Shown piece after piece: positions 10,947 through 58,421 of a DNA stretch of 64,000 nt. The notes under the pieces are model-generated. The model saw nothing but the letters and a program-made list of their open reading frames with translations, was not told the origin of the DNA and made no database searches. This DNA comes from Planctomycetota bacterium (GTDB lineage Bacteria; Planctomycetota; B15-G4), in assembly GCA_029259745.1 (NCBI GenBank), contig JAJDEO010000069.1:129983-193982 (forward strand), written 5' to 3'. Within the stretch, counting starts at the first letter, position 1. Each line of letters begins with the position of its first letter. The translations under genes and the position numbers were made by a program.

Positions 10947-11034
10947 GCCGGGGAGCGGAGCCTTGCGGGAAGTGGTGACATCGGGTGCCCATGTCGAAGC
11001 GGGAGAGCATACCCCGCCATCGGCCAGGGATCAC

Positions 11035-31973: not shown

Positions 31974-32075
31974 CGGCAGAGGGCAGACCCAACGTCGCCT
32001 CGGCGTTGCATGTGGCGGGCTCGGGGGCAAAACGTCGTGTCAGTTATGAACTGACCCCTCGGAGACGCTCGCATC

Positions 32076-32708
32076 ATGTGGCTCGTCCTGCTCGAAACCG
32101 GCTTTGCCATCACGCTTGTCGTGGCGGGCACCGTCCTGACCGACGTGATCCAGCCCGATGATGGTCACTGGACGTTCCGCGGGATCCTGAAGAGCGCACG
32201 TCGACGCTGGCGACGTGTCCTCATCGTCATCTCTCTGTTCCTGGCTGCCGCATGGTTCGACAGCACTCTCGCGAGTGAAGAGGCTGCGCGGGAAGAGGCT
32301 CGTGAGCGATCGCTCCTCAAGACCTTTGCAGCGCTCGCACCACCGAACGAGCCATTCGCAGCAGTATCACTCCCGGCGCTCGAAGGCGAGTGGAACGTCG
32401 ACGTCATGACCGATGGCGTCCTGGAGCAAACGGCCGACTGCAAGATCCGTCACGTGGCGGGGAGTCGCATCTTCACCCTCGAAGGCCTCGACTTTCCGTG
32501 GACGGGCACCGGCGAACTGCGTCCCGAAGGTGAGGGTGTGTCCATCCGCCTGAACTTCGATGATGGGTATGACCAGGGGACAGCGGCCACGTCCGCGCCG
32601 GTGGACAGCGGTGCCCTGTCCGTCTTCACGCTCGACTATGTCGACGCGCCGAACAGCCAAGACGTCACCCGCGGCTACCTCATGTTCACCCGACGCAACG
32701 GTGCCTGA
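32076..32708 (+). CDS. hypothetical membrane protein
   Basis: Two predicted TM helices; moderate GC3; regional GC is lower than the surroundings. Confidence 0.45.
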   Translation: MWLVLLETGFAITLVVAGTVLTDVIQPDDGHWTFRGILKSARRRWRRVLIVISLFLAAAWFDSTLASEEAAREEARERSLLKTFAALAPPNEPFAAVSLPALEGEWNVDVMTDGVLEQTADCKIRHVAGSRIFTLEGLDFPWTGTGELRPEGEGVSIRLNFDDGYDQGTAATSAPVDSGALSVFTLDYVDAPNSQDVTRGYLMFTRRNGA

Positions 32709-32730
32709 TGAGCGCCGGCTCGACGAGCGC

Positions 32731-32855
32731 GACGTTCTCGACCGTGCTCGCGTAGGGATTGATCTGGACCGAAGCCGTTGCGTCGTCTTCGGCGAGGACG
32801 CGGCCCGACACGACAGTGCCGTCAGTCAGAACGAAGATGTCGCTCGCGAAGCGTC
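32731..32855. repeat. diverged duplicate (~88% identity over ~125 nt) of the 3' coding end of the giant gene at 35899..36020
   Basis: Read by eye: cgtgctcgcgtagggattgatctg...gcgtcgtcttcggcg.ggacgcggcccgacacgac...acgaagat.tcgctcgcg occurs at both sites. On the minus strand, copy A encodes ...SDIFVLTDGTVVSGRVLAEDDATASVQINPYASTVENV, matching the giant protein's ...SEIFVLKDGSVVSGRVRAEDDATASVQINPYASTIEEV. Confidence 0.6.
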
Positions 32856-33019
32856 GTTGGTTCGACTTCGTAACGGACGAGTCAACCTTCGCACGCGCCG
32901 CTGAGCCGCGGGCATTCCTACGTCAATCGTTGTCGCGAACTTGAGGTGTGTCCGCTTCCCCTGATGAGTGGGCACCACAACGGCGCTCGCCACACACCCC
33001 CACAAGTTAGGGATACATC

Positions 33020-33580
33020 ATGCGCATCTTGACTCTGAGCCTGCTCTTGCTAATGGGCAGCGTCCCGCCGCTATCCGTTGCCGCACAAGACACCAGCGAA
33101 CAAACGTCCGCCGGGCGCGCTGCAATCGGATACGTACACCTGAACCCTCGCCGCACGACGTTTGAGGAGGATGTCCTCGGCGTCGACCACGTTGTCTATG
33201 GCGTCGTGAAGGCCGTGCATGACACCCGCCGTAACGACTTCCCATTCAAGCAGTACGACGTGCATGTCTTGCGTGACGATGAGGGTGACGGAGACCACGT
33301 CATCAGTGTCATTGTGCCGGGGTCGCGTGACGCGACACCACCGATCGTCGTCGTTGGTGCCCCGACCTTCGGAGTTGGCGACGAACTCGTCCTGCTGCTG
33401 GATGACCTCGACGAGAGTCAGCATCACATCGTGCGTTCGGCCTCGAGCGGCGCCTACCGCGCCACGGGTCCCGAACGCGCGGTTCTCGGTCGCGGTGCCG
33501 GTGCCAATGAACCCGCCTGGTCATTCTTCCTGCGCCTGACCGCGATGCGCACCCAGGCGGCCACGCAGCTCCCCCGCTGA
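33020..33580 (+). CDS. secreted hypothetical protein
   Basis: Signal peptide MRILTLSLLLLMGSVPPLSVAA. ~60% GC, lower than the window average. Confidence 0.55.
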   Translation: MRILTLSLLLLMGSVPPLSVAAQDTSEQTSAGRAAIGYVHLNPRRTTFEEDVLGVDHVVYGVVKAVHDTRRNDFPFKQYDVHVLRDDEGDGDHVISVIVPGSRDATPPIVVVGAPTFGVGDELVLLLDDLDESQHHIVRSASSGAYRATGPERAVLGRGAGANEPAWSFFLRLTAMRTQAATQLPR

Positions 33581-33608
33581 GCAGCCCAAGACAAGCCAAC
33601 CCTTCGAC

Positions 33609-35516
33609 ATGAGAACCATCATGAACACCCGAACCCCGTTCTTCGCCCTCGCCGCCGGAATCGCCCTGGGAGCGCAAGCTCTTGCGGGTGGGCCCGAGAT
33701 GCAATGTGATGGCACACCCGTGATCTGGGGCATCGCTCCCGGAACTACGATCCAGTGGAGCATCGCGCGCACGATGGTGAGCGCGACCGAGTGCACCGTC
33801 GTGCCAGGTTTCGCCTGCACGCCGTGCAGTACGGGCGCCGGCGCGCGCCCAGGAACCTGGAGCATGGTGCGGGCGGCCCGCCAATGGACGCGTGCTACGC
33901 ATCCGTGGCTGCCAGCAACAGCCGGCGCGAGCAACGTGTCATTCATGCAACTCGACGACCCGTTCACGAGTTACGTCTCGACGTCTCCGGGAAGCAACCT
34001 GGTCGTCAACGATGGTACGAACGTCGTGACGTGCTTCCAGAGTGACAGCTACTGGGACGGCCTCGGCGATCCCTTCGGCATCACGGTCACCTGGCTGGAT
34101 GCGAGCAATCAGATCATCGAAGCCGACATGGCGCTCAATGCGATCGACGATGACGACAGCGTCGTGCTGCTCGAAGAGAACAACTACACGGGCCTCACGT
34201 ACGTCAACCAGAACCCCCCGACGGGCCGATTGGTCGATCTGCGAGGACTCGTCACGCACGAACTCGGACACTTCCTCGGGCTCTCGCACTCGCTCGTCGA
34301 ATCCCAGCGCAACGCACTTGGATCCGACCAGCCCACGATGTTCCCGATCGCTGACGGCGCGCCGTTCACCGGCACTGTGACCGCACCCACGGGTAGTGGC
34401 TGTTCGACCACGACACTCAGTCTTTCCGACCGGGTGCTCTTTGCGCGCGCGTCAACGTCGGTCGAACTCGACGACATCATCGCCCTCGCGACTGCCTATC
34501 CGAAGCCGGTCTTCTCGGCGGCCCTCGGATCCATCGAAGGCACCGTATTGGACCAAGATGACAGCGGCATCGAGTCGCGCCTTCAGGCGGCACATGTCGT
34601 GGCCATCGCCGTGAACGACCCGACGACACGTGTCGGAACGTACATCACTCCGAACGATGGCACGTACACGATCCGCGGCCTCCGCGCGGGCGACTACCAC
34701 GTGATGATCGAACCGATCGAGACGGGCGCCACGCCCTATGCCGGCATCATCTCGTCCATCCCGAGCGACACCTTCGTCTACGCGCCGACGTTCCTCGATG
34801 GAGACCTTCCCACGATCTACCAAGGCCAGTCGAGCTGCCCGGACGCGAACGACCCGCCACCTGCGTTCGCCGTCTTCAACGCCGAGATGCACAGCACGGC
34901 CGACACCGGCCCGAGCGAGTGTGAAGCAGATCAGATGTATTCATCCGCCATCTCTGTGAGCAACAACAGCACGACGAACTGCCGTTTCCTGGTTGCGCGA
35001 GGCTCGACGCCAGGACTGCCGGGGACCGGCACGGCCTGCCAGACCTTCCCACTCCTCCGGACGGAGAACCCCTCTGGTCTTTGGGTCGGACTTGCTAACG
35101 AAGTCAACGGCACAACACTTCCGGGAGCCACGTTGTCTCCTCACGGCATCGGATACGGAGATCTCGCGCAAGACTTCACGACGACGTTCCTCGTCGCGGC
35201 CGGCGGCACCACGAGCAGCGGTAACGACCTCGCTCCGTACTCCGGGCCGGTGACGCTGCGCTTGTCGACAGAACTCGACCTGAACGTGCGTGCCGACGGG
35301 CGTGTCGAACTCATCGACAATGGCTTGGCCTTCACGACCACGGGGACGATCCCGTCGACGAATCCGCGGATCGCCCGCTTCGACTTCCTCTCGAGTGAGT
35401 TCCCGCCCACGCAACTCGGGGTGACGAACTTCGTCGACATCTTCGCGCAAGCCGAGTTCGGTGACATGCTGACGAACATCGTCGTCATTCGCATGAACAT
35501 CGAGAACCCGAACTGA
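33609..35516 (+). CDS. secreted metzincin-type zinc metalloprotease (HExxHxxGxxH; matrixin/M10-like) with large C-terminal domains
   Basis: Signal peptide (MNTRTPFFALAAGIALGAQALA). VTHELGHFLGLSHS zinc-binding motif. ~60% GC. Confidence 0.8.
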   Translation: MRTIMNTRTPFFALAAGIALGAQALAGGPEMQCDGTPVIWGIAPGTTIQWSIARTMVSATECTVVPGFACTPCSTGAGARPGTWSMVRAARQWTRATHPWLPATAGASNVSFMQLDDPFTSYVSTSPGSNLVVNDGTNVVTCFQSDSYWDGLGDPFGITVTWLDASNQIIEADMALNAIDDDDSVVLLEENNYTGLTYVNQNPPTGRLVDLRGLVTHELGHFLGLSHSLVESQRNALGSDQPTMFPIADGAPFTGTVTAPTGSGCSTTTLSLSDRVLFARASTSVELDDIIALATAYPKPVFSAALGSIEGTVLDQDDSGIESRLQAAHVVAIAVNDPTTRVGTYITPNDGTYTIRGLRAGDYHVMIEPIETGATPYAGIISSIPSDTFVYAPTFLDGDLPTIYQGQSSCPDANDPPPAFAVFNAEMHSTADTGPSECEADQMYSSAISVSNNSTTNCRFLVARGSTPGLPGTGTACQTFPLLRTENPSGLWVGLANEVNGTTLPGATLSPHGIGYGDLAQDFTTTFLVAAGGTTSSGNDLAPYSGPVTLRLSTELDLNVRADGRVELIDNGLAFTTTGTIPSTNPRIARFDFLSSEFPPTQLGVTNFVDIFAQAEFGDMLTNIVVIRMNIENPN

Positions 35517-35532
35517 GGCGACGCTAGCACTC

Positions 35533-35569
35533 GCGCCCCCGTCACACATCACGTGTGTGACGGGGGCGC
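35533..35569. terminator. perfect 16-bp GC-rich hairpin (5-nt loop) between convergent genes; candidate bidirectional terminator
   Basis: gcgcccccgtcacaca-tcacg-tgtgtgacgggggcgc. 17 nt after the metzincin stop and ~200 nt beyond the giant-gene stop on the other strand. No T-run. Confidence 0.45.
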
Positions 35570-35772
35570 CCACGCATCCACGCACACTTCCGGGAGTCGT
35601 CGGCATCGTCGCGGTGTCGCCTTGGGTCGGCTCGCCTCGTCGAAGGCGAACCGGAGCGTTGGTCGTTGCTGCGCCGAGCTGCATGAGCAGGTCACGAGTG
35701 ACCTGGCATGGGAAGACCACCGTGCCGCTTGCCCACGTCTCGAGTTCATTCGCACGCCTCACTCTCGCGCAC

Positions 35773-38700
35773 TCACTTCCTCTGCGCGGCGAGGTAGGCC
35801 AGCAGGTCGGCGATCTCTTCGCGGGTGAACGTCGAGAGCAGGCCTTCGGGCATCGCCGAGACCTGCGACGTCCAGCGGTCGTCGACGTCGGCCACGGCGA
35901 CCTCTTCGATCGTGCTCGCGTAGGGATTGATCTGCACGGAGGCCGTGGCGTCGTCTTCGGCGCGGACGCGGCCCGACACGACGCTGCCGTCCTTCAGGAC
36001 GAAGATCTCGCTCGCGTAGCCCGCGGCGATCTCGGCGCTCGGGTCGAGGAGCTGCGCGAGGAGGTCTTCGTTGCTCGTCCAGCGCGCGACGCCGGCTTCG
36101 ATCGCCGGGCCCGTCTCGCCGCCCGCGCCGTCGACCGCGTGACAGAGGGTGCACGAGGCATCGACGAAGACATCGCGGCCGCGCTCGACCGAACTGCTCG
36201 GCACGTCGTCGAGGATCGGACGCAACTCGTCGAGCGTCCACTCGGCGACGAAGACACGCTCGCAGTTCTCGGCCATGACGGAGGCCTCGGCCGCGGCGAC
36301 CGCATCGACGACATCGAGAGCCGCATCGCCGGGTGCGACGACACGCAACGTGCCGTTCATGCGCGTCCAGTGGCCGGGGACCGTGCAGACGAAGGGATAG
36401 TTGCCCGGCGCGCTCGGCGCATCGAAGCTGAGAGTCTGCGATTGGCCTGACGACAGCAGTCCCGTCGCGACGATCACGTCGGGGACGTCGGGGACGAAGG
36501 CCCGCTCCCAGGCGTCGGGCTCGGCCGCCATGGCTTCGGCCGCGCGCCCCACGCGCGCAAGTGCACCCGGGGCCGTGACGACGAGGTTGTGCGGCATGAT
36601 GTCCGTGTTGTCGAAGACGAGTTCGATCGGACGACCCGCGGCGACGACGAGTTCGGTGCGGTCGAAGAGCAGCGCGTCGTGCACGGGACGCACGAGGAAC
36701 ACCTGCGGTCCGAGCGTGCGACGAAGGCGCCTGAATCCGTCGACGACGCCCGATGACATGCGCGGGATCCACTCGTCGGCGAAGGCCAGCACGCTGCGGC
36801 CCGTCGGCGTCATCCAGTAGCTCTCGGGCTTCGCGACGGCGAGCGTCTCGAAGAGCCCGCGCTCGAGCTCCTCGCGGTTGGCGTCCGACCATCGCTCGGC
36901 GTCGATCCCGCGCAGAGCGGCTACGACATCGGCGCGCAGCTCGTCGTCGCGCAGGCGATCCACGAGTGTCGTGATCGTCACCGGGACGCGCACGTCGAGC
37001 GCCCCCAAGGCGCGGACGGCCGCACGACGCAGCGTGAGGCGCGGCGGCTCGAGCGTCCATGACATCGTGGGCCCGAGCTGCCCGTCGTGTTGGTACGCGG
37101 CGACAGCTCGACGCTGACCGTCGAGGACATCGATGACGACGTCGTCGAGGCGGCGACCGTATGGGCCGTCGGTGCGATTCCAGAGCGCGATGCGATCGAT
37201 GCGTTGCGTCGCGCCGAGGTCGAGCTCCCACCATGGGTTCGGCTGGTCCTCGAGCGTGTGCGTCTGCGCGCCGTCCAACCATGCGCCGCTCGTGATGCCG
37301 TCCAGTGCATTGCTCGGCACGCCGCCCCAGTTCGTCGACGACTGCGTCGCGCTTCCCGCCGGCGCGACGTTCGTGCCGGCCGCGAACACCTGCACCTCGG
37401 CCAGCGTCAGCGTGCGCTGATCGCCCGCGAGAGACACACGCACGTAGCGGCCGGCCACGGCGTTCGCGTCGCCGAGTTGCGTCGCGAGCGCGGGCGGCGG
37501 GCCGTCGAGCAACGCAGCGACGCGATCGTAGACCGTCGCTCGCGGGGACATCTTCGTCGTGTAGGCCAAGGCGTCGAGGAACTCGGTGAGGGCCCCGGCC
37601 GACGTGAGCCCCGTGCTCCAAGCCGACTCGATGTCATCACTGGCGTCGATCGCTGCCGCCGTGGCGAGGCGGCGCGTCGAGCGGCGCTGTCCCTCGCGCG
37701 CGAGGCGCGTCAGGGCAACCGCAGAAGCGCCCGCATCGACGTCACGCAGCGTCGCGAAGAGGTCGGACAGCAGGTGATCGGCGTGACTCGACGCCTCGTC
37801 CTCGCGATCCGCCGTGTCGATCGCAGCGAGCAACACCTCCACCACCGACTCGCCGCGCGCGTCGGCGAGGCGCTCTGCCGCGGCGCGATACGTCACGATG
37901 TCGAGGCCGTGGCGCGTGAGCCGCTCGGCGTCCGCGACCACGCTCGGCGCGACGCGCGCGAGTTCATCCGTCGTCAGCATCGACAGCAGGTGCGCCAGGC
38001 CCGTCGGATCGTCGGCGCAAAGCACCTCGCCGCTCGCGAGGGCCGAACGCCACGGGACGTCGAGGGTCACGAGTGTTTGGTGCAGCGCATCCTCGAGGAA
38101 GGCGTCCATCGGCTGGGACAGAACCGACACCGCGGCCTCGGCCGCCCCCGCCGTCGGCACGAAGCTCAGCCCCACCACGGCCTCGCAGCGCACGCGCGGA
38201 TCGACATCACGAGCAGCCTTCGCGAGCAGCTCCGGCGCGTCATCGATCAGGCGCCGCATGTGACGCACCGCGCGCACGGCCGCTGCGCGCGCTCGGGAGT
38301 CGCGCGCGTCGAGCAAGCGCAGCAACAGCGGACGATCGACAACCGTCTGACCCTGCTGAACCCAGAGCGCCTCGAGCAGGTGGTGCTCGTGCTCGGGGTC
38401 GTTCGCATCGAGCGACTCGACCCAACGACGGGCCGCAACCACGACGTCGACCGTCGCGCGTCCACTGAGCTCGATGCGCGTGCGGTAGCGCACGCGATCT
38501 TCCGGCGTCCTCAGGTTCTCGAACAGCACGTCGAGCGGTTGGTCGGCAATCGGCACGGGGTCGAGCAGCGGACGTCCATCGGCCACCACGCGGTAGATAC
38601 GGCCGTGCAGACGATCGCGGCTCGGGTCGCGCAAGTGATGTTGCATGTGCCCGATGATCGCGTTGTGCCAGTCGGCGACGTAGAGCGCGCCGTCGGGACC

Positions 38701-40695
38701 CACCTCGAGATCGACCGGCCGGAAGTTCAGGTCGTCGCTGAAGAGGATCGGTTCGATCTCGTCGGCGCCGAAGCCGGCCCCGTCGTCGCGCAGCTGGTAC
38801 TGGAAGATGCCGCGGAAGCCGATGACGTTCGCGATGAGGTACGTGTCGCGGAAGGCCGTCGGCATGTGTCGACTCGACAGGATCTCCGTGGCCGCGGCCG
38901 GGCGACTACGCTGCGGGAAGAACGGTCGGCCGCGCGTGCGCTTGGCCGGGAAGATCGCGTGCCCACTCAGCGGCCCGACGACGTAGTTCTGGTTGCCCGT
39001 CCCATCGGTGACGAAGTCCTGTCCCCAGCGATCGAAAACGTGACCGTGCGGGTTCGCGAAGTTGAACGGCATGTAGCGTTCGACGTGCCAGGTCCGCGGA
39101 TCGAAGCGCCACACACACGCGTTGTTGTTGCGCACGACGCCGTGGACGGTCTCGATCTGTGAGTGGTGGAAGACGCCTTCCTGGAAGTAGAGCGCGCCGT
39201 CGGGGCCGAGCACGAACGAGTTGGCGCCGTGATGCGTGTCGGCGCTGGAGAGACCGTGCAGCACGCGCGTGCGCTCTTCGATGCTCGCACGCCCATCACC
39301 GTCTTGGTCCTTCAAGAAGAACAGGTCGGGCGCCGTGGCCACGAAGACACCGCCGTTCCAGAACTCGATCCCCGTCGGGTTGTGGAGACCTTCGGCGAAC
39401 GGAATGCACGTGTCGGCGCGTCCATCGCCGTCGTGGTCTTCGAGCACGAGGATCGCGTCGAGACCCTGGCCGATCGACGCACCGCCGACGTCCGCGGGCA
39501 ATCCGTGCGGGTACGTCGACCAGACCGCCACCCAGAGTCGCCCGCGCGTGTCGAACGCCATCTGCACGGGGTTGACGAACTCGGGGAACATCGACTCGTC
39601 GGCGAACAGCTCGACACGCAGCCCGCGCGCCGGCGTCATGTCCTCGAGCGCGTCCGTGCCGTCGCGGTAGACGTGCTCGCCGTCGGGTCCGTCACCGGGG
39701 CGATTCGTCTTCACCGGGATCACCGGAGGGACCTCGACCTCGGCCAGCTCCTGGACGACGGCGATGAAGTCTTCCGCCTTGCCGGCCGCCACGAGCCACA
39801 TGTAGCGATCGGCACGCGCGACGTGGGCATCGAGCACATCGAGCTCCCGCTGAAGCACCTCGTAGTTCGTGACGCCGTCGTACTCGAGCGACGAGCGTCC
39901 GCCGTAGACGTTGTAGCCATCGGTCGCGCGATAGCGGTTGAACCACATCGCGTTCTTCAGCCGCACGGCCATGCGCAGCTCGCCATATCGGTCGGACGTC
40001 GGCTGAGGCGTGCCGGCCCCTTCGATCCGCGTGAACAGCGCCTCGGTGAGGAGGCGATGACCGCGCTCGTTGAGGTGGATGCCGTTGATCGTGGTGTGGT
40101 CGGCGGCCGCGAAGTCGTCCGCGAGAAGCGCGGCGAGATCGACGAACGGCAGGCCGCGCTCGTCGGCGAGGGTGTGCATCGCGCGGTTGAAGGGCGCGAG
40201 GCGCGTCGTGTGGTCGAGCGCCGTCGGCACCAGCGGGCTTTCAGCGTCCTCGGCGGCACAGGGGCCGACGAGCAGCACGCGACGCGTCGGAACGCCGTCG
40301 TCGTCCGCGGCCTCGAGCATCGTCAGCCACGTCGCCAAGTCACGCCGGAAGTCGGCGGGCGAGCCCTCGAAACTCTCCGCGAACCCCACGAACGCCAGCA
40401 CGACCGACGCACCGACGCGTCGCAGCCACTCCTCCTGGGAGCCGAAGCCGTCTGTGCGCTGACCGCCGCGCACGCCGTCACCCGAGAAGCCGAGATTGCG
40501 CAGCGACAGACGATGCTCGGGGAACGCCCGATGCAACGCCGTCTCGAACTGTCCGTCGTGTTGCATGCGCTCGGCGAGCGCGTTGCCGACGATCGCGATC
40601 CGATCCCCCGGCTGCAGCACGAGCCGCGCCTCGTCGGGTTCGGCAGCCACGAGCGGGACAAGACACGACAACAGCACGAGCGACAGACGAAGCAT
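35773..40695 (-). CDS. giant multidomain PVC-type protein: SGNH/GDSL-like hydrolase, putative membrane-bound dehydrogenase beta-propeller, HEAT repeats, F5/8 type C (discoidin), cupredoxin-like, C-terminal CxxCH cytochrome c domain
   Basis: Listed ORF 35773..41874 is fused upstream to an R-rich wrong-frame stretch. True start is ATG 40695 (MLRLSLVLLSCLVPLVAA signal). Motifs: IAIVGNALAE...RNLGFSGDG; NPTGIEF..HGANSF (propeller); PRVRCEAVVGLSF (HEAT); RYVRVSLAGDQRTLTLAEVQVF...WWELDL (discoidin); MPHNLVV...FVCTVPGHW (cupredoxin); CTLCHAVDG (heme c). Architecture matches Pirellula/Verrucomicrobium-type heme-binding proteins. Confidence 0.8.
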   Translation of the reverse strand: MLRLSLVLLSCLVPLVAAEPDEARLVLQPGDRIAIVGNALAERMQHDGQFETALHRAFPEHRLSLRNLGFSGDGVRGGQRTDGFGSQEEWLRRVGASVVLAFVGFAESFEGSPADFRRDLATWLTMLEAADDDGVPTRRVLLVGPCAAEDAESPLVPTALDHTTRLAPFNRAMHTLADERGLPFVDLAALLADDFAAADHTTINGIHLNERGHRLLTEALFTRIEGAGTPQPTSDRYGELRMAVRLKNAMWFNRYRATDGYNVYGGRSSLEYDGVTNYEVLQRELDVLDAHVARADRYMWLVAAGKAEDFIAVVQELAEVEVPPVIPVKTNRPGDGPDGEHVYRDGTDALEDMTPARGLRVELFADESMFPEFVNPVQMAFDTRGRLWVAVWSTYPHGLPADVGGASIGQGLDAILVLEDHDGDGRADTCIPFAEGLHNPTGIEFWNGGVFVATAPDLFFLKDQDGDGRASIEERTRVLHGLSSADTHHGANSFVLGPDGALYFQEGVFHHSQIETVHGVVRNNNACVWRFDPRTWHVERYMPFNFANPHGHVFDRWGQDFVTDGTGNQNYVVGPLSGHAIFPAKRTRGRPFFPQRSRPAAATEILSSRHMPTAFRDTYLIANVIGFRGIFQYQLRDDGAGFGADEIEPILFSDDLNFRPVDLEVGPDGALYVADWHNAIIGHMQHHLRDPSRDRLHGRIYRVVADGRPLLDPVPIADQPLDVLFENLRTPEDRVRYRTRIELSGRATVDVVVAARRWVESLDANDPEHEHHLLEALWVQQGQTVVDRPLLLRLLDARDSRARAAAVRAVRHMRRLIDDAPELLAKAARDVDPRVRCEAVVGLSFVPTAGAAEAAVSVLSQPMDAFLEDALHQTLVTLDVPWRSALASGEVLCADDPTGLAHLLSMLTTDELARVAPSVVADAERLTRHGLDIVTYRAAAERLADARGESVVEVLLAAIDTADREDEASSHADHLLSDLFATLRDVDAGASAVALTRLAREGQRRSTRRLATAAAIDASDDIESAWSTGLTSAGALTEFLDALAYTTKMSPRATVYDRVAALLDGPPPALATQLGDANAVAGRYVRVSLAGDQRTLTLAEVQVFAAGTNVAPAGSATQSSTNWGGVPSNALDGITSGAWLDGAQTHTLEDQPNPWWELDLGATQRIDRIALWNRTDGPYGRRLDDVVIDVLDGQRRAVAAYQHDGQLGPTMSWTLEPPRLTLRRAAVRALGALDVRVPVTITTLVDRLRDDELRADVVAALRGIDAERWSDANREELERGLFETLAVAKPESYWMTPTGRSVLAFADEWIPRMSSGVVDGFRRLRRTLGPQVFLVRPVHDALLFDRTELVVAAGRPIELVFDNTDIMPHNLVVTAPGALARVGRAAEAMAAEPDAWERAFVPDVPDVIVATGLLSSGQSQTLSFDAPSAPGNYPFVCTVPGHWTRMNGTLRVVAPGDAALDVVDAVAAAEASVMAENCERVFVAEWTLDELRPILDDVPSSSVERGRDVFVDASCTLCHAVDGAGGETGPAIEAGVARWTSNEDLLAQLLDPSAEIAAGYASEIFVLKDGSVVSGRVRAEDDATASVQINPYASTIEEVAVADVDDRWTSQVSAMPEGLLSTFTREEIADLLAYLAAQRK

Positions 40696-40820
40696 CGGCG
40701 CGACCTCGAGTGGAGAGGTCGACCACCTTAGCAGCCGGTTGAAGGACTGCTTCGGATGGGATGGGCGTGCCGGTTGGTTCTGGTCGTGCGCGGAAGATCG
40801 CCGCGGCTTGCCCCGACGCG

Positions 40821-41939
40821 TCAGCCGAAGCGCACGCTGTGGATCGGCGGCAGGTGCGCCGAGATGTGCGTCCAATGGTCGCCCTGGTCTTCGCTCACCC
40901 ACAGCGAACCCGTGGTGCTTCCGAAGGCGAGCACGTCGCCGCTCGCATCGATGTCGAAGGCGTGGCGGAAGACGAGATCGTAGGCGTGCTGCTGCGGCAA
41001 GCCGTTCGTGAGGACGTCGAAGCTCTTGCCGCCGTCGCGCGTGCGCGTGACGACGACCTTGCCGTCCTTCGGATAGCGGGCCTCGTCCTTGACCGCCGGG
41101 ATGAACCAGGCCGTATCGGGGTCGCGCGGATGGACGACGACGGGGAAGCCGAACGTCGACGGGCCGGCCTCGGCGACCTCGTTCCACGAAGCGCAGTCGT
41201 CGGTGGTCTTGAAGATTCCGTTGTGGTGCTGCGCCCAGAACACGTCGGGCGCCGACGGGCTCTGCACGACGCAGTGCGGGTCTTGGGTGTTCGGGTCGCC
41301 GGCGAGTTCGGGCGGCATGTACTCGGCGCGCATCCCGTCGGCGCGCAGCTCCCAGCTCGTGCCGCCGTCGCGCGTCTGCCAGACACCGCCGCACGAGACC
41401 CCCAGCGTGACACGGTCGGCGTCGTCGGGATGCACGCAGACGGAGTGGATGCCGGGCCAGTCGGCGCCGCCGCCGAACCACCCGGGACGCAGCTCGTGGT
41501 ACCAGAGCGACTGGACGAGTTGCCACGTGTCGCCGCGGTCGTCGCTGCGGAAGAGGCCACCGGGGATCGTCCCGCACCAGAGCGTGCCCGGTTGCGCGGG
41601 GCCGCCTGGCGCGAGCGCCCAGATCTTCTTCAACGACCATGGAACCGGGCGCGCGTTGTTCTCGGTTGGCTCGGGCTCGGCGTCTTCGGGCTTGGGCGGG
41701 TAGATGGGCACGCCGACCTCCTCGAACGTGGCGCCACCGTCGGACGAGCGCTGCACCTTGACGCCGAAGTGTCCGTGATCGAGGGCGGCGTAGACGTCGC
41801 GCCCTTCGGTGCGCACATCCGACATCGCGAGCGAGACGTTGTCGCCCAGCATCGCGACGTCCGACACGCCCCACCCGTCGCTCCCGCGCGTCACCGTGAA
41901 CAGGCCCTTACGCGAGCCGACGAGAATCCGTGCTGTCAT
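40821..41939 (-). CDS. BNR/Ycf48-like beta-propeller protein (sialidase-fold glycosyl-hydrolase-like)
   Basis: ATG 41939 (MTARILVGSRKGLFTVTRGSDGW...). Repeated SxDxGxTW BNR motifs (SSDGGATFE, SDDRGDTWQ, TRDGGTSWE, TRDGGKSFD, SEDQGDHWT). Confidence 0.75.
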   Translation of the reverse strand: MTARILVGSRKGLFTVTRGSDGWGVSDVAMLGDNVSLAMSDVRTEGRDVYAALDHGHFGVKVQRSSDGGATFEEVGVPIYPPKPEDAEPEPTENNARPVPWSLKKIWALAPGGPAQPGTLWCGTIPGGLFRSDDRGDTWQLVQSLWYHELRPGWFGGGADWPGIHSVCVHPDDADRVTLGVSCGGVWQTRDGGTSWELRADGMRAEYMPPELAGDPNTQDPHCVVQSPSAPDVFWAQHHNGIFKTTDDCASWNEVAEAGPSTFGFPVVVHPRDPDTAWFIPAVKDEARYPKDGKVVVTRTRDGGKSFDVLTNGLPQQHAYDLVFRHAFDIDASGDVLAFGSTTGSLWVSEDQGDHWTHISAHLPPIHSVRFG

Positions 41940-41984
41940 CCGTTCTCTCCCTGATGCGCTTGCGACGCTGGACACTGCTCCGTG

Positions 41985-42254
41985 TCAGCCGCCCGACAAC
42001 GCCTGCATGACGTCGATACGCCCGCCCACCGACACGCCGTCGCCGAGCGTCGCACGATCGCGAATCTGATGTCCATCGACGAACACGATCATGTGCTTTC
42101 GCAGAGCGCCTTGGTCGTCGAGCACGTAACTCCGTGCGCGCGGGGCGTGGCCGAAAACGGCCTCGAGACACTCGCGAACGGTGCGGCCTGTGACCTCGGT
42201 CGGCGGGCACTCCACGTGCCGCTGGATGTTCGCCGTGAACGTCACCGTCACCAT
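41985..42254 (-). CDS. MoaD/ThiS-family ubiquitin-like small protein ending in Gly-Gly
   Basis: MVTVTFTANIQRHV...GHQIRDRATLGDGVSVGGRIDVMQALSGG* is a beta-grasp sulfur-carrier-like protein with C-terminal GG. First of a three-gene minus-strand unit (MoaD-like, BNR propeller, giant heme protein). Confidence 0.65.
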   Translation of the reverse strand: MVTVTFTANIQRHVECPPTEVTGRTVRECLEAVFGHAPRARSYVLDDQGALRKHMIVFVDGHQIRDRATLGDGVSVGGRIDVMQALSGG

Positions 42255-42541
42255 CGTCACTCCTCCGCGTGGCGCTCGGCCGCCCGTCCCTCTGCATCAG
42301 ATCGAGAGCGACGTTAGATCCACTTTGCGCGGACGTCAAACGCGCTCGGTTCGACGCCTGGATCGATCACGACGGTTGCCAGTCCTCCAGCCGGCCATGC
42401 GCAGCGTTTGCCGCCAGAACTGTGTGCCCGCCACGGGTCCCACGCGCGACTCGGCCACGCACAGGTTCGTGTGTGCGGGCGCCACGCCCCTCGGCGTCCC
42501 ACGCCGGGACACCTCGTCGCGAAATCTCGTCCACAGGACAG

Positions 42542-44329
42542 ATGCGCCGAGTGCCGATGCATCAGCACGACACCCTCGATTCGACATCCATGACTTCCCG
42601 GTTCCCAGACCGCATCCGCCCCGACCCGATCACGGTCGTGCCCGCCATCCTCGCCGCCCTGGCGACGCTGGCCGCGATGCCGCTGCTGATCGCCCGCGGC
42701 TGGACGCTCAAGGTGTTCGCCATCCCGATCGCCGAGCGGTTCTTCTCGAGCGATGGCGTGATCAACCCGTCCTCAGAAGTGTTTCTCGAACGACTGCTGA
42801 GCAACCTTGGCTGGATGCTCCTCGTCGTCGCGTGCCTCGTGATGGCCTGGGGGCGACTGGGACGAAGCCTTCCCGCCCAGCTCTCCGAGCACTTGCACGG
42901 CGCCATCAGCGAGACGCGCGCACGCGGCTGGTGGCTCCCCGCGCTGGCCTCCGTGCTGCTCGCCGTCCTGTCCGCGCCATACATGACCCGCGGCTTCGGC
43001 TACGACGAGATCTTCACGACGATTCACTTCATCGACACGGCGTCGTTCTGGGAGACGCTGTCGTCGTACAAGCTCTTCAACAACCACGTGGCCTACTCGC
43101 TGCTCGCGCGCATCGCACGCATGGTCGGCGGCCCGTCGGAGGCCGTCCTGCGTGTTCCGGCGCTGCTGCTCGGCATGACGACGATCGTGGCGACGTGGCG
43201 CGTCGGGCTCGCACTCGTCGGGCGACGTGCCGCCGGGCTGGCCGTGCTGGCCCTGGCCTGCTCGCCTACCATGATCGCCTGGAGCACGTCCGCGCGCGGC
43301 TACACGGGCCTGATGGCCTGCACGTCGTGGGCGCTGCTCGCCTACCTCGAAATCCTACGCGAACGTGGACGGCCGGCGACGCTGCAGCTCACCGTCGCCC
43401 TCGCCGTCGGCGCCTGGTTCCACCTCTACGGCATCCTCGTCGGTCTTGCGATCGGCGCGCACCTCATCTGGATGACACTCACGTCGCCCTCGCACGTCTC
43501 GGCACGGGCCTTCCGCGCATCGTGGTGGTCACTCGTGGGCGCCGGACTCGCGACATTCGTGCTCTACATGCCGGTGCTCCCGCAGCTCCTCTATCACGTC
43601 GCCCAGCGCCGCGCCGGCACCTTCCAGCCCGACTTCCCGATCACCGTGCTCACCGAACTCGTCGGTGCAGTTCCGGGGCCGCTGTTCGTCCTCATCTCCG
43701 TCTTCGCCGCGATCGGCCTCGCATCCGTCCACCGCCTGCAGGGCGCACGAGCCAGCTGCCTCGTCGCGATCTCGCTCTGCCCACTGTTGGTGCTGTGGCT
43801 CGTGATCCAACCGTTCGACCTCTACGGCCGCTTCTTCGCCTACCTCCTGCCGCCCTTCCTGCTGCTCGTCGCGCGCGGCTTGCTCGACGTCACACCGCAG
43901 CGCAGCACGGTCCTCGCCGGCATCATCTTCCTCTGGCCGATGGGCGAGTGGCTGGAGCGGGCCGAGAGCACGATCGTCGAGGAGGGCTATCGCGGCGCCG
44001 CGAGCGCTGTCTCGGGAACGGCACACCACGACCTGACCGTGAAGCTCAGGCCCGCGAACGCGCAGACGACCATCGTCGCGATCGGCGGCGGTGCCGAGTT
44101 GTTCGACTACTACTGCGACAGGCCTGTCGTCGTTCCGAACGACTACATCAGCTTCCTGGAGGTCGCGGCCGGAGCGCGCGAGATGCGCTGCCTCTACCGC
44201 CCGACGTCTTGGCAGAGCGACGACCACGACGCGATCTCCCTCTGGTTCGAGACGCACGGGCGCCGGTTCGATTTCGGGAACGTGTGCGTCTACGTCTGGG
44301 CCCGGACGGACGACTTCGCGGCGCACTGA
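42542..44329 (+). CDS. GT39/PMT_2-like (ArnT/dolichyl-phosphate-mannose mannosyltransferase-like) polytopic membrane glycosyltransferase
   Basis: Real part of ORF 42269..44329. 10+ TM helices and the GT-C family pattern (RVPALLLGMTTIVATW...YTGLMACTSWALLAYL). Start uncertain; ATG 42542, 42557 and 42590 are all possible. Confidence 0.65.
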   Translation: MRRVPMHQHDTLDSTSMTSRFPDRIRPDPITVVPAILAALATLAAMPLLIARGWTLKVFAIPIAERFFSSDGVINPSSEVFLERLLSNLGWMLLVVACLVMAWGRLGRSLPAQLSEHLHGAISETRARGWWLPALASVLLAVLSAPYMTRGFGYDEIFTTIHFIDTASFWETLSSYKLFNNHVAYSLLARIARMVGGPSEAVLRVPALLLGMTTIVATWRVGLALVGRRAAGLAVLALACSPTMIAWSTSARGYTGLMACTSWALLAYLEILRERGRPATLQLTVALAVGAWFHLYGILVGLAIGAHLIWMTLTSPSHVSARAFRASWWSLVGAGLATFVLYMPVLPQLLYHVAQRRAGTFQPDFPITVLTELVGAVPGPLFVLISVFAAIGLASVHRLQGARASCLVAISLCPLLVLWLVIQPFDLYGRFFAYLLPPFLLLVARGLLDVTPQRSTVLAGIIFLWPMGEWLERAESTIVEEGYRGAASAVSGTAHHDLTVKLRPANAQTTIVAIGGGAELFDYYCDRPVVVPNDYISFLEVAAGAREMRCLYRPTSWQSDDHDAISLWFETHGRRFDFGNVCVYVWARTDDFAAH

Positions 44330-45513: not shown

Positions 45514-45704
45514 CGCGGCGGGTCCGCCCGGGCTCCTCGGCGCGTCTTCTGGCACCGCGTCTCGCGGTCCTGCAGGTTGGCCCGGCGACCTCGCGACGCC
45601 CCCCGTGAATCATCCGGGCCTAGTGGTCCCCGCGCCAACCGTGCATGATGCGTCTCGGCTGCCTCCCGGCAGCGCTCGCCCCTTCACACGTCCAGAGTCC
45701 AGCG

Positions 45705-46031
45705 ATGTTCATCGGCCAGGTCGTCGGCACCGTGGTGTCCACGATGAAAGACGAGAAGGTCTGCGATCTGCGGCTGCAGATCGTGCGCCAGCTCGACGAG
45801 AACAACGAGGCGCGCGGCGGGTACGTCGTGGCGGCCGATGCGATCGGCGCCGGGCACGGCGACCTCGTGCTCTACGCGCAGGGGTCGAGCGCGCGTCAAA
45901 CCGAGCTCACCGATGGCCGCCCCATCGACGCGGCGATCTTCGCTGTCGTCGACTCTTGGGACGTCGACGGGAAAGTCGTCTATCAGAAGGAAGGTCTCGA
46001 GTCGATCGGCGTCGAGCCGGCCGAGGTCTGA
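45705..46031 (+). CDS. BMC vertex protein, EutN/CcmL/PduN family (BMC-P), paralog 1
   Basis: MFIGQVVGTVVSTMKDEKVCDLRLQIVRQLDE...GAGHGDLVLYAQGSSARQ...DAAIFAVVDSWDV is the canonical PF03319 pattern. Confidence 0.85.
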   Translation: MFIGQVVGTVVSTMKDEKVCDLRLQIVRQLDENNEARGGYVVAADAIGAGHGDLVLYAQGSSARQTELTDGRPIDAAIFAVVDSWDVDGKVVYQKEGLESIGVEPAEV

Positions 46032-47417: not shown

Positions 47418-48189
47418 CGCCCTGCTCTTGCAGCTCGACTCCCGCGAACACGATGTCCGTCACGTTCGCCATGAGAAGCCGATCGACGACCTTGACGACT
47501 TCGGGATAGGTCAGCCCCTCACCGACATCGAGGACGACCCTGTGGCCTTGCCATGCCTCGGAAGCAGATCGCGCGTGCTCACCGAACGCCGCCAGATCGA
47601 GCACGGCGCCGTCCGGCATGGCGACGGTCGGCCCGGGACGCAAGCCAAGCGTCAGCTTCGGTCCGACAGCCGCATTGACCCCGACATCCTTCGGGAGCTT
47701 CGTCTCGAGCTTCGCCTCAAGCTGCTTGTACTTCGTCAGCGACATGTCCGCCATCTCCAGGAGGCTGAGATCCTCCCCAGCCGCTGGCGTGACCCGCGTG
47801 GCGAGCTGCGTGCGGAGCTGCGGGACGAACGCGAGGACGCCGTCGTTCTCGACGATCGGGACGATGACGCTCCAGCCATGAGCGAAGTCCGCGATGACCG
47901 TCAGCTCGTCCTGCTCGCGGATGCTGAGCGGCGGCTCTGAGAGGTCAACGTCCTCGACGGCCTCGAGACACGTCTCGTAGACCACGTCGACATGCTCGTT
48001 GCCCACGCATGGAAGCGCCGCGAAGGCCAGACGATCCTCGTCAGCGAGTGCCTCGAGCAGCGCAGACGCGAGATCCACCCGTGGTCCCGAGCTGCTGTCG
48101 ACAGGTATGGGGGCAACCCCCGACAGGAACGCGACGAAAAGGACGGCGAGAACGCCGAGGACGCCGAGGACCACCAAGAGCGATTTCAT
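47407..48189 (-). CDS. hypothetical secreted/membrane-anchored protein
   Basis: ATG 48189 (MKSLLVVLGVLGVLAVLFVAFLSG). Listed ORF 47407..48987 is extended upstream by wrong-frame R-rich sequence antisense to the aldolase. Confidence 0.55.
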   Translation of the reverse strand: MKSLLVVLGVLGVLAVLFVAFLSGVAPIPVDSSSGPRVDLASALLEALADEDRLAFAALPCVGNEHVDVVYETCLEAVEDVDLSEPPLSIREQDELTVIADFAHGWSVIVPIVENDGVLAFVPQLRTQLATRVTPAAGEDLSLLEMADMSLTKYKQLEAKLETKLPKDVGVNAAVGPKLTLGLRPGPTVAMPDGAVLDLAAFGEHARSASEAWQGHRVVLDVGEGLTYPEVVKVVDRLLMANVTDIVFAGVELQEQGDGD

Positions 48190-48267
48190 GCGCCCCATCG
48201 TACCGCGGAGCCCCGCAGCCACACCTGCCCCCTTCCCTCGCGCGGGCTCTCGCGCAATCATGGCGGA

Positions 48268-49140
48268 ATGCAGATGTCGCACGATGATCCCACTCCCGAC
48301 GTCAACGACATCCCGGCCGTCGGCTGTGGACGTCCTGTCGTCGATCCCAAGCTCGTCGGTACGCCGATCGGTGCCACGCCCTACAGCGCGCCCGAGTCGC
48401 CGCCCGAACGCCGCGGCGTGCTCACGCAGGCCGGCATCGCCGACAAGGACGCCCTCGCGAAGCAGATCTGCGACGTGATGCGGCTCATGTATCAGAACGA
48501 GTTCGTCGTCGCGAACGACGGCAACGTCTCGTGCCGCCTGCCGAACGGCAACATCCTCATCACGGCCTCGGGCGTCCTGAAGGGTTTCATGACGCCCGAC
48601 CAGGTCATCGAATGCGACCCACAAGGACGCGCGCTCGACGGCCGTAAGGTCACCACCGAGATCCGCATGCACGTCGACGCGTACAACGTGCGGCCCGACG
48701 TGCGCGCCATCGTGCACGGGCATCCGATCTACGCCGTCGCGTTCTCGCTCGCGGGTATCTCGCTCGCGATGTGCGCGATCCCCGAGATCATCGTCACCAT
48801 GGGCACGATCCCGACGGCGCCCTACGCCACGCCGGGCACCGACGACCTGCCCGACGCCCTCGCGCCGTACCTCTCGAAGGGCGACGCGGTGATCATGGAG
48901 CGCCACGGCGTCATCTGCCTCGGCACCGACCTCTTCGACGCGTACAAGAAGATGGAGATGGTCGAGCACACGGCGAAGATCACGCATGCCGCGCGGACGA
49001 TCGGCGAGGTGCGCCCGATCGCGCCCGAAGGCGTCCAGCGTCTGCTCGAGAGTCGCAAGGAGCTCGGCTTCACGATGAAGAACAACCTCTGCGACGGCTG
49101 CGGCGCGCGCGAAGTCTGCGCGTCACCGCTCTACCCGTAG
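48268..49140 (+). CDS. class II aldolase/adducin-family protein (fuculose/rhamnulose-1-phosphate aldolase-like) with N- and C-terminal extensions
   Basis: ATG 48268 or 48274. Aldolase core (VANDGNVSCRL...ITASGV...HGHPIYAVAF...VIMERHGVICLG). ~55-aa N-terminal extension and a ~22-aa Cys-containing C-terminal tail (NNLCDGCGAREVCASPLYP). Confidence 0.8.
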   Translation: MQMSHDDPTPDVNDIPAVGCGRPVVDPKLVGTPIGATPYSAPESPPERRGVLTQAGIADKDALAKQICDVMRLMYQNEFVVANDGNVSCRLPNGNILITASGVLKGFMTPDQVIECDPQGRALDGRKVTTEIRMHVDAYNVRPDVRAIVHGHPIYAVAFSLAGISLAMCAIPEIIVTMGTIPTAPYATPGTDDLPDALAPYLSKGDAVIMERHGVICLGTDLFDAYKKMEMVEHTAKITHAARTIGEVRPIAPEGVQRLLESRKELGFTMKNNLCDGCGAREVCASPLYP

Positions 49141-56650: not shown

Positions 56651-58312
56651 TCAAGGCACGGTGGCCGTGAGTCCGTTGCTGGCCGAGGCGCCGAACGGGA
56701 TCGACGCATCGATCACCCACCACTGGAAGACGAAGTCGGAGCCCGAGGGCGCGCCCGCTGGCCAGGTCCCGAGAAGTTCGAGCTTCTCGAACGCGAACAC
56801 AGTGCTGAAGATGTCCACGAAATCGGGGCTCGGCACGAGCACGCCGCCCTTGTACGGCGCGTTGATCTGCGAGCCGCCTATGACGAGCGCGGCCACACCG
56901 TTGGCGAGCGCTTCGGGAAGCGCGTTAGAGATCGAGATCCGGAAGTCGGAGCCGGGGACGAGCGTGCCGCCGCCGTCGAACACGTGCGCACCCGAGGAAC
57001 CCGGGTGACCGAGGCCGCGGTCGATCCAGAGGGCCTCGTTGAGCGACGTCACCCAGATCGATCCCGTCTGCGGTGGGTTGATGAAGTCGTTGTCGTTCGA
57101 GGCACCGATGACAAGCTCGGAGCGTCCGTCTCCGTCGAAGTCGGTCGACGCGAGGCTCGCCCCGAAGAACGCGTCTGTCGTCAGCGTGCCCTCGAACGTT
57201 CCCGCTGTGTCGCTGATCTTCTGGTGACCGTTGACCGTACCGTCAGGCTCGAGAAACAAGACCCAAGCTGCACCGTGATTCGAGCCTCCGTCATCATCGA
57301 AGACAGCCCCGACAGCGAGCTCCGCGACGCCGTTTCCGTCGCGGTCGGGAATCGCGGTCAGCGCGGACCCGAAGCGGTCGCCGGCCTTCAGCGCGCCTTC
57401 GAAGCCTCCGTCGCCGAGTGCGATGCGCTCGGCATCCCGCACCGTGCCGTTGCCGTTCAGGAAGACGATCCAGACCTCGCCGCGCAAACTGTCCGCCGTG
57501 TTCGCGCCGACAGCGATGTCGACGACGCCGTCTCCGTCGACGTCACCGATGTTGGCCACGGCGACGCCGAAGTTGAAGGCAGGCGAGACGGGCAGTCCAC
57601 CGACGCCGTCCGCGATACGCACCGAGTTCTTCACGGTGCCGTCCGCCTTCATGAACAAGATCCAGACCGCGCCCGTGCCGTCCTTCCATGCGCCGATCGC
57701 GATGTCGTTGACGCCGTCGCCATCGAGATCACCGAGCGCTGTCGCCGAACGGCCGAAGCGTCCGCCGGGGCTGAGCTGCCCCGCCATGCCGCCGCTCGAG
57801 TTCCCGATCACGACGGAACTCTTCACTGTGCCGTCAGCGTTGAGGAACAGCGTGAAGACCTCGCCCGTCGCGTTGTCACCGAAGTTGCTCCCCGCGACGA
57901 GATCGAGCACGCCGTCACCGTCGAGGTCACCGACGTCGACGACGCTGGAACCAAAGCGATCGAACGGGGCCACGGGACCGACGAAGCCACCCTCCGAGGC
58001 CGAGATCTTCTGTTCGGCGCGGACGCTGCCGTCGGCGTTCATGAACAGGATCCAGAGCGCGCCGGTGAACGTGCCGCCGTCATCATCGAGGTTCGCGCCC
58101 ACGGCCAGGTCGTGCACGCCGTCCCCGTCGAGATCACCGAGTCGCGCCGACGAGAAACCGAACGAATCGACCACATCGAGCGAGCCGCCGAAGCCGCCGA
58201 GACCCGCGCTGATCTCGACCTCGCCCGTCACGACGCTCGGCGTCTGCGCCACAGCTCCGACGCTCAGCGCCACCAGGGCAACGCCGAGAATGCACACATC
58301 TGCCGTCAGGGT
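56651..58312 (-). CDS. secreted FG-GAP/VCBS-repeat protein with the conserved ~95-aa C-terminal module
   Basis: True start MGRTLTADVCILGVALVALSVGAVAQ. Listed ORF 56651..58819 has a wrong-frame N-extension. Repeats LGDLDGDGVHDLAVGA / VGDLDGDGVLDLVAG / LGDLDGDGVNDIAIGA / IGDVDGDGVVDIAVGA. C-terminal module homologous to 3992..6454 and 16779..17249. Start coordinate is +/-1 uncertain. Confidence 0.7.
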   Translation of the reverse strand, partial: TLTADVCILGVALVALSVGAVAQTPSVVTGEVEISAGLGGFGGSLDVVDSFGFSSARLGDLDGDGVHDLAVGANLDDDGGTFTGALWILFMNADGSVRAEQKISASEGGFVGPVAPFDRFGSSVVDVGDLDGDGVLDLVAGSNFGDNATGEVFTLFLNADGTVKSSVVIGNSSGGMAGQLSPGGRFGRSATALGDLDGDGVNDIAIGAWKDGTGAVWILFMKADGTVKNSVRIADGVGGLPVSPAFNFGVAVANIGDVDGDGVVDIAVGANTADSLRGEVWIVFLNGNGTVRDAERIALGDGGFEGALKAGDRFGSALTAIPDRDGNGVAELAVGAVFDDDGGSNHGAAWVLFLEPDGTVNGHQKISDTAGTFEGTLTTDAFFGASLASTDFDGDGRSELVIGASNDNDFINPPQTGSIWVTSLNEALWIDRGLGHPGSSGAHVFDGGGTLVPGSDFRISISNALPEALANGVAALVIGGSQINAPYKGGVLVPSPDFVDIFSTVFAFEKLELLGTWPAGAPSGSDFVFQWWVIDASIPFGASASNGLTATVP

Positions 58313-58421
58313 TCTTCCCATTCTCTCTCTCCTCGTCTCGATCTCTTGGTCATGCCGCATGGGCGGAGAAAGGCTCAACGCCACCAACGCGCGAAGCGGA
58401 CGGACCCGTCTCGGAAAAGAT

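Follow-up and report, generated by a model that had tools for sequence, protein, structure and literature searches.

What does a small ubiquitin-like protein with a free Gly-Gly end do beside a cytoplasmic beta-propeller, and does the giant redox protein encoded next to them belong to the same system? This question is raised by a stretch of 64,000 nucleotides from a Planctomycetota bacterium (contig JAJDEO010000069.1), analysed here as a whole and called the window, in which three genes follow one another on the reverse strand. The first, at 42254..41985 (-), encodes a protein of 89 amino acids whose translation ends in QALSGG directly before the stop codon, and which we call the GG protein. 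A spacer of 45 nt (41940..41984 (-)), with a Shine-Dalgarno-like GGGAGAG run ahead of the ATG, separates it from the second gene (41939..40821 (-)), which encodes a beta-propeller of 372 amino acids without signal peptide. After another 125 nt follows the gene of a 1640-amino-acid giant protein with an N-terminal signal peptide (40695..35773 (-)); the propeller and the giant protein are both on record as called genes. A sequence-only reading of this DNA had given the same coordinates and gaps, all of which are correct, and had interpreted the three genes as one co-directional unit, in which the GG protein might be a sulfur carrier for cofactor maturation of the giant protein or a ubiquitin-like tag. 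Only the first two genes, however, are linked beyond the window genome, and it is their partnership that we describe here.

A self-contained two-gene cassette

A profile search with the propeller in one genome per species returned at least 594 loci, the best 80 of which were examined as the core-clade set. In 77 of these 80 loci, the gene directly upstream of the propeller gene, on the same strand, encodes a GG protein homologue, and one of the three remaining loci has no room upstream of the match. The best 80 loci span at least six phyla, with members in Planctomycetota, Acidobacteriota, Gemmatimonadota, Alpha- and Betaproteobacteria, Myxococcota and Verrucomicrobiota, and propeller homologues remain 55-66% identical across phyla. 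The spacer, 45 nt in the window, has a median of about 16 nt in the 77 loci, and some of the genes overlap. All-against-all clustering of the neighbouring open reading frames (ORFs) in the 80 core loci showed that apart from these two, no family recurs in more than 9 of them. These loci show that the GG gene and the propeller gene are a conserved, self-contained two-gene cassette, and the link between the two that the sequence-only reading had suspected is real and far stronger than could be seen from the letters alone. We also considered fusion of the two proteins by stop-codon read-through, as both share one frame in the window, but they do so in only 22 of 77 loci, which is what chance would give.

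The cassette is found in well-known organisms: Ralstonia solanacearum OE1-1, where the genes are annotated as 'ThiS' and 'sialidase', Burkholderia including B. cenocepacia, Pseudomonas aeruginosa, where it lies near pmpM, and Cupriavidus metallidurans CH34. It is also present on a plasmid of the Bacteroidota member Chondrinema (L085), at 38% identity. In the closest relative (L087), the propeller is 77% identical to that of the window, and the divergent gene of a PMT_2 glycosyltransferase, which lies upstream of the pair at 42269..44329 in the window, is kept.

But is the partnership tied to one gene order? A metagenome scan yielded 80 loci of a sister clade, whose propellers are 35-45% identical to the window protein. 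Here, the GG gene is directly downstream of the propeller gene in 32 loci, directly upstream in 18, 1-2 kb downstream in 4 and fused to the propeller gene in 5, while it is absent from 15 loci and not evaluable in 6. An exhaustive profile search gave 830 representative clusters at E <= 1e-30. In P0299 and P0375 (453 and 454 amino acids), a MoaD-like domain ending in SGG is joined to the propeller by a short linker; both are called as single genes, with the ThiS and BNR matches in one chain. Since the two genes are adjacent across phyla, switch order in the sister clade and are fused in some organisms, we regard the GG protein and the propeller as functionally coupled. Adjacency that persists through changes of order, together with fusion, is strong evidence for a direct functional partnership, which is probably physical.

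No conserved third gene emerged from all-against-all clustering of the neighbours in the 80 sister loci, the best candidates being a tandem-YCII gene and a DUF427 gene in 4-6 loci. The tandem-YCII (YciI-like) gene directly follows the propeller gene in six sister loci (L127, L128, L130, L131, L132 and L148), and in four of these six it stands between the propeller gene and the GG gene, with a DUF427 gene next after it. In P. aeruginosa (L086), the pair is likewise flanked by YciI-family genes, although these may go with a sigma-factor gene nearby instead. Two sister-clade propellers of 32-33% identity, from Marivivens (L084) and Fuscovulum (L091), have no GG gene within 4-5 kb; their neighbours are deoC and aldehyde dehydrogenase genes, or a glutamine-synthetase-like gene, a SCO protein and a multicopper oxidase. 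Some members of the propeller family therefore work without a linked GG protein.

A MoaD/ThiS-type protein that ends at Gly-Gly

The terminal Gly-Gly is the hallmark of C-terminal activation chemistry in the ThiS, MoaD and ubiquitin-like families. The homologues of the GG protein are uniformly about 89 amino acids long, and 108 of 120 database homologues stop exactly at the GG, with 1-16 residues beyond it in the other 12. An SGG C-terminus is found in 76 of the 77 GG proteins that adjoin core-clade propellers. With a free C-terminal GG in a protein of about 70-100 amino acids, the window protein has the end and the size expected of ThiS/MoaD-type proteins.

To which known family does it belong? 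The best hidden Markov model (HMM) match is NCBIfam SAMP1 (NF041918; 4e-9, 36.9 bits, cut-off 60), followed by NCBIfam moaD_arch (5e-5, 23.6 bits, cut-off 49.5) and Pfam ThiS (PF02597; 0.005, 17.8 bits, cut-off 22.5), so that the window protein lies below the cut-off of each. Clear homologues pass the ThiS cut-off at 27.4 and 38.6 bits, and many carry a precomputed PF02597 match under the NCBI name MoaD/ThiS family protein. Among proteins of solved structure, SAMP1 and a MoaD-related protein come closest, each as a weak match. The earlier assignment to the MoaD/ThiS-type Gly-Gly proteins agrees with the QALSGG end and with homologues above the ThiS cut-off. Two narrower identities were rejected: MoaD proper, the small subunit of molybdopterin synthase, as the moaD_arch score is below its cut-off and no more than 2 of 93 core-clade loci have MoaE close to the pair, and a SAMP1-type modifier, as the score is below the cut-off of NF041918 and no JAMM or E1 gene is linked.

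The propeller and its predicted pocket

The propeller is a cytoplasmic seven-bladed Asp-box (BNR) protein without signal peptide, as judged from its sequence and its homology. It matches the Sortilin-Vps10 and BNR repeats of Pfam, and its AlphaFold2 (AF2) model is of high confidence (predicted local distance difference test, pLDDT, 88; predicted template modelling score, pTM, 0.90). The best structural match is 3b7f (Reut_B4987 / YP_299179.1), a structural-genomics entry from Ralstonia eutropha JMP134, with a template modelling (TM) score of 0.88, 34% identity and a Foldseek E of 2e-34; the profile of the propeller family matches it over residues 5-369 with E 1e-74. Full-length homology and the same fold place the window protein in the 3b7f-type cytoplasmic Asp-box family, for which there is no curated model. 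The seven blades follow from homology to 3b7f and from the strand count of the AF2 model, in which the N terminus is part of the closing blade. After 3b7f, the most similar structures are those of GH74 enzymes (xyloglucanases), DAIP, Ycf48 and sortilin.

Ycf48/HCF136 was rejected as an identity for the window propeller, which has no PF14870 match and no signal peptide, and a TM score of about 0.5 at 12-15% identity. The database name exo-alpha-sialidase (GH33) is probably wrong as well: the window protein has seven blades and no BNR_2 match above threshold, and GH33 sialidases are six-bladed (PMC2716378). The same source gives the family of 3b7f as 'Not known' (PMC2716378). Could the propeller nevertheless be a glycosidase, with the GG protein as a non-catalytic subunit, chaperone or regulator whose GG end has no chemistry? 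The names exo-alpha-sialidase and glycosyl hydrolase in the databases and the GH74 xyloglucanases among the structural neighbours would fit. We consider it improbable, as the propeller is cytoplasmic and seven-bladed, in contrast to six-bladed GH33 sialidases (PMC2716378), BNR_2 stays below threshold and the contexts are not CAZy-like, while the near-universal stop exactly at GG is hard to explain without C-terminal chemistry.

What, then, is conserved in the propeller itself? In 80 core and 68 sister sequences, Lys11, His165, His222, Gln237, His239 and Arg325 are among the polar residues outside the Asp-boxes that are conserved in both clades. Residue 220 (window 41282-41280), two residues before the invariant His222, is Asp in 80/80 core and Cys in 68/68 sister sequences. 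On the window, the codons of the predicted pocket residues conserved in core and sister clade lie at 41223..41447 (-) for His165, Asp220, His222, Gln237 and His239, with Lys11 at 41909..41907 (-) and Arg325 at 40967..40965 (-) outside this span. Read from blade topology in the AF2 secondary structure and not from coordinates, the conserved polar residues would sit at the starts of the innermost strands (strand A) or in B-C turns, and thus on one face, opposite the Asp-boxes and near the axis. Three histidines and a ligand swap between Asp and Cys suggest a metal site.

Cysteines 183, 223 and 240, close to the predicted site, come and go between subclades. The idea of a 'migrating cysteine' was dropped: Cys183 had seemed invariant in 17 sequences, but of the 80 core sequences only 55 have a Cys there, which leaves Asp220/Cys220 as the one strict switch. 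Another protein from the representative search, P0334 (704 amino acids), carries a Ser/Thr protein kinase domain fused to the N terminus of a sister-clade propeller, which hints that some members of the family are regulated by, or act in, signalling.

A proposed carrier and its partner enzyme

How could the two proteins work together? At a probability of roughly 0.45, we favour a model in which an E1 activates the GG end in trans, and the propeller, as the cognate enzyme, binds the tail for chemistry on its (thio)carboxylate. The GG end would be adenylated, and probably thiocarboxylated, by an E1 of the MoeB/ThiF type encoded elsewhere in the genome. The propeller would be to the GG protein what MoaE, ThiG, CysM or TfuA are to their carriers, and would bind the flexible tail in the central pocket of its top face, lined by His165, His222, His239, Asp220 (Cys in the sister clade), Gln237, Lys11 and Arg325 and possibly a metal site. 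The chemistry on the C-terminal (thio)carboxylate would most likely be sulfur transfer to a substrate, which is probably anionic. Fusions between carrier and partner have been described for ThiS-ThiG and MoaD-MoaE (PMC1779556). A bolder, more doubtful proposal is that the Asp-box propeller may represent a new, perhaps metal-dependent class of partner enzyme for the GG (thio)carboxylate of ubiquitin-like or sulfur-carrier proteins.

Several observations weigh against this model. The conserved neighbours in the core and sister loci include no gene for an E1, a rhodanese, a cysteine desulfurase or a JAMM protein, so that activation is assumed. In the AF2 model of a natural fusion (pTM 0.80), for which the alignment held only two sequences of the N-terminal domain, GG tail and linker are disordered (pLDDT <50, residues 83-93) and docking of the tail is not predicted. 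In some fusions, only 3-4 residues lie between the GG and the first propeller strand. The proposed pocket is on the other face from the start of this strand, so that an uncleaved tail would be unable to reach it in cis. Finally, the search for riboswitches and other RNA regulatory elements in the window and in nine loci returned nothing that would hint at regulation.

Alternatively, the pair could form a ubiquitin-like tagging system, with the propeller as a (metallo)hydrolase or transferase specific for Gly-Gly, which exposes or removes the GG end or conjugates the GG protein to targets. Precedents exist in the JAMM enzymes Mec for CysO and QbsD for QbsE. A GG-specific endopeptidase is needed both for the 12 of 120 homologues with extensions past the GG and for the fusions that bury it, and the sole conserved partner is the propeller; no JAMM gene lies near the pair. 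A site of three His and Asp/Cys is typical of metal hydrolases, and the best HMM match of the GG protein, SAMP1, is a protein modifier. We nevertheless regard this alternative as unlikely: 90% of GG proteins need no processing, E1- or E2-like genes are not linked, the propeller has no relationship in sequence or fold to known peptidases, and fusions of the MoaD-MoaE type do not imply that the partner is a protease.

But where is the activating enzyme? As the sequence-only reading had noted, no E1-like (ThiF/MoeB) or JAMM partner is nearby: the window ORFs scanned include no ThiF/MoeB, JAMM, MoaE or rhodanese, and a regular-expression search for an E1 motif over the loci and the window, a test of low sensitivity, gave no match. 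A few loci do place the pair beside cofactor genes. On the Chondrinema plasmid, it adjoins cysteine desulfurase-SufU-MoaE and XdhC, the fused gene P0299 (L092) directly follows an operon of the xanthine dehydrogenase (XDH) type (Fer2/MoCoBD/FAD) and a DUF1326 gene, and two Xanthobacteraceae loci have XDH-type genes close to the pair. The first two of these contexts are suggestive of molybdenum-cofactor (Moco) sulfur chemistry, though most loci have no such genes.

Such neighbours are what one would expect if the GG protein were a MoaD variant of the molybdopterin pathway and the propeller served in Moco handling, for example sulfuration or insertion for enzymes of the xanthine-oxidase family; the match of the GG protein to moaD_arch points the same way. 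However, the loci with an XDH or MoaE gene close to the pair number only about 4 of 93 in the core clade and 2 of 80 in the sister clade, which does not exceed what families this abundant would give. The MoaD models score below their cut-offs and no Moco riboswitch was found, so that we give this role little chance. A partner enzyme acting on the activated GG end remains our preferred account of the pair.

The giant neighbour

What of the third gene? The domains that the sequence-only reading had listed for the giant protein are confirmed. A signal peptide (MLRLSLVLLSCLVPLVAAEP, 40695..40639 (-)) is followed by a GDSL domain (40542..40051 (-), residues 52-215), a TIGR02604/DUF7133 propeller (39654..38581 (-), 214.2 bits, cut-off 122.2), HEAT repeats (38424..38167 (-)), an F5/8 type C domain (37371..37081 (-)), a cupredoxin domain with an apparent His...Cys-x-x-Pro-Gly-His-x-x-x-Met ligand pattern in the translation (36678..36340 (-)) and a C-terminal TIGR02603 CxxCH cytochrome c domain (36189..35785 (-), 94.4 bits, cut-off 68.15), in which the motif reads CTLCH. 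With TIGR02604 and TIGR02603 both above cut-off and a CxxCH motif, the giant protein can be assigned from its sequence to the PVC-type heme-binding proteins, as had been proposed. The ORF list contains an ORF of 2033 amino acids in the same frame. As the GC content at third codon positions (GC3) jumps from about 0.5 upstream of 40695 to 0.82-0.92 downstream of it, and a called gene of 1640 amino acids is on record, we take the giant protein to be the product of one gene that starts at 40695, in line with the single ORF assumed before.

None of the ORFs of the best 80 related loci encodes a homologue of the giant protein, and none is encoded beside the closest relative of the pair. The giant gene is thereby shown to be a lineage-specific neighbour without conserved link to the pair, and of the synteny proposed for the three genes, the MoaD-like gene and the propeller gene are kept in 77 of 80 loci and the giant gene in 0 of 80. 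For the same reasons, there is no evidence that the GG protein matures the cofactors of the giant protein. That the three genes nevertheless form one unit, in which the GG protein serves the giant redox protein as a sulfur carrier for its maturation or as a tag for its modification, would agree with their common direction, the short gaps and the absence of a terminator-like site between them. We rate this as very improbable. Apart from the missing homologues, the closest relative has an unrelated FG-GAP-like gene downstream of the pair despite 77% identity and the same divergent PMT_2 gene; other Planctomycetota have DJ-1 and GT2 genes after the pair and then aminotransferase, ClpB-like ATPase and kinase genes; and the two proteins of the pair lack signal peptides, unlike the secreted giant protein.

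What the giant protein does on its own can be approached through its relatives. Lac161_ORF7 (AGW45552), with TIGR02604, HEAT and CxxCH, is a beta-galactosidase that hydrolyses lactose in vitro with a Km of 1.8 mM (PMC5342196), and in planctomycete genomics the TIGR02604/TIGR02603 family is treated as putative propeller-type glycoside hydrolases (PMC7397252). The earlier statement that the function of these giant PVC proteins is unknown is thus partly outdated, at least for this one member (PMC5342196). Given its signal peptide, GDSL esterase and discoidin-type binding domain, the simplest reading of the giant protein is that of a secreted carbohydrate-active enzyme, probably one with built-in copper and haem electron-transfer domains.

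Surroundings of the locus

The GC content of the window is 64-71%, with a local value of about 0.637 at 32000-36000, compared with about 0.68 elsewhere. The giant gene and this lower-GC block (32-36 kb) separate the pair from the genes that directly follow it in relatives: at 23-30 kb, the window has the same DJ-1, GT2, aminotransferase, ClpB-like ATPase and kinase genes that come after the pair in other Planctomycetota. From this we conclude that the giant gene and the lower-GC block were placed between the pair and these genes in the window lineage. Convergent to the giant gene and downstream of it, at 33609..35516, lies the gene of a secreted M10-like/CarboxypepD_reg protein, with a weak match to a myxosortase-dependent metalloprotease model. 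No promoters or terminators were found in a scan for them.

A few kb from the pair, the window encodes an EutN/CcmL vertex protein (45624-46031 (+)) and a class II aldolase (47941-49140 (+)). A cluster of three EutN genes and an aldolase also adjoins the pair in four other Planctomycetota loci (L081, L087, L088 and L089). This microcompartment-type cluster looks like lineage synteny and not a link across phyla. Further away, at 6541-11030 (-), two GT2 glycosyltransferase genes are followed by a Wzt/Wzm-type exporter of the ATP-binding cassette (ABC) class, consisting of an ATPase with the Wzt C-terminal domain and an ABC-2 permease; this polysaccharide export cluster is unrelated to the pair. 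Two large secreted repeat proteins are encoded at 56651-60692 (-), one with FG-GAP repeats, the other with at least 4 CarboxypepD_reg domains. Anti-phage defence, searched for with PADLOC, gave no matches.

Implications

ThiS- and MoaD-type proteins are the bacterial roots of ubiquitin, and what defines each of those known is the enzyme it partners with, in pathways to thiamin, molybdopterin, cysteine, siderophores or thioamides. The pair described here is a widespread, uncharacterised partnership of a ubiquitin-like protein and a propeller, on the theme of carrier plus partner. It adds a carrier partner of unprecedented fold, in hundreds of species including P. aeruginosa. No model specific to either protein was found in Pfam, NCBIfam or PADLOC, and the literature searched, including a 2006 survey of prokaryotic ubiquitin-like proteins, yielded no paper on the pair. 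Should the propeller prove to be a new class of partner enzyme, this would add an undescribed, widespread bacterial pathway in P. aeruginosa, Ralstonia, Burkholderia and Cupriavidus, which needs no JAMM or E2. As the pair is present in genetically tractable pathogens and the crystal structure of a relative exists, these ideas are directly testable. Two likely annotation errors are also corrected: the propeller is probably not an exo-alpha-sialidase, and the giant PVC-type gene should not be taken for its operon partner.

Comparison with known systems

Finally, we would like to place both the neighbour and the pair in the context of systems that have been described. The giant protein has its TIGR02604 propeller, HEAT repeats and C-terminal TIGR02603 domain with CxxCH motif in common with Lac161_ORF7, from which it differs by some 600 additional amino acids and by its GDSL, F5/8 type C and cupredoxin domains.

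For the GG protein, SAMP1 and Urm1, which combine the roles of sulfur carrier and protein modifier, are close in size and have the same GG end, and SAMP1 is the best HMM match. However, the 36.9 bits of the GG protein fall short of the cut-off of 60, its gene is linked to neither a UbaA-type E1 nor a JAMM gene, and the pair is bacterial and spread over many phyla.

For the propeller, 3b7f is a member of the same seven-bladed Asp-box family, and His57, His165, Asp220, His222, His239 and His270 are common to both; at 34% identity, it belongs to another subclade, with QNHCG instead of QHHNG. Ycf48/HCF136, the Vps10 domain of sortilin and DAIP are Asp-box propellers as well. They bind peptide C-termini or carboxylates on or in the propeller and provide a model for binding of the GG tail. 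However, they are distant (TM 0.3-0.5, 12-17% identity), reside in extracytoplasmic or lumenal compartments and have no beta-grasp partner.

The closest parallel to the pair as a whole is found in MoaD-MoaE, ThiS-ThiG, CysO-CysM and ThiS-TfuA, where the gene of a small GG beta-grasp protein likewise stands beside, or is sometimes fused to, that of one dedicated partner, and where the E1 may be shared and encoded elsewhere. The pair of the window, known here from sequence, departs from these systems in that the GG protein lies below the MoaD, SAMP1 and ThiS cut-offs and in that its partner is an Asp-box beta-propeller, a fold that is, to our knowledge, new among carrier partners.

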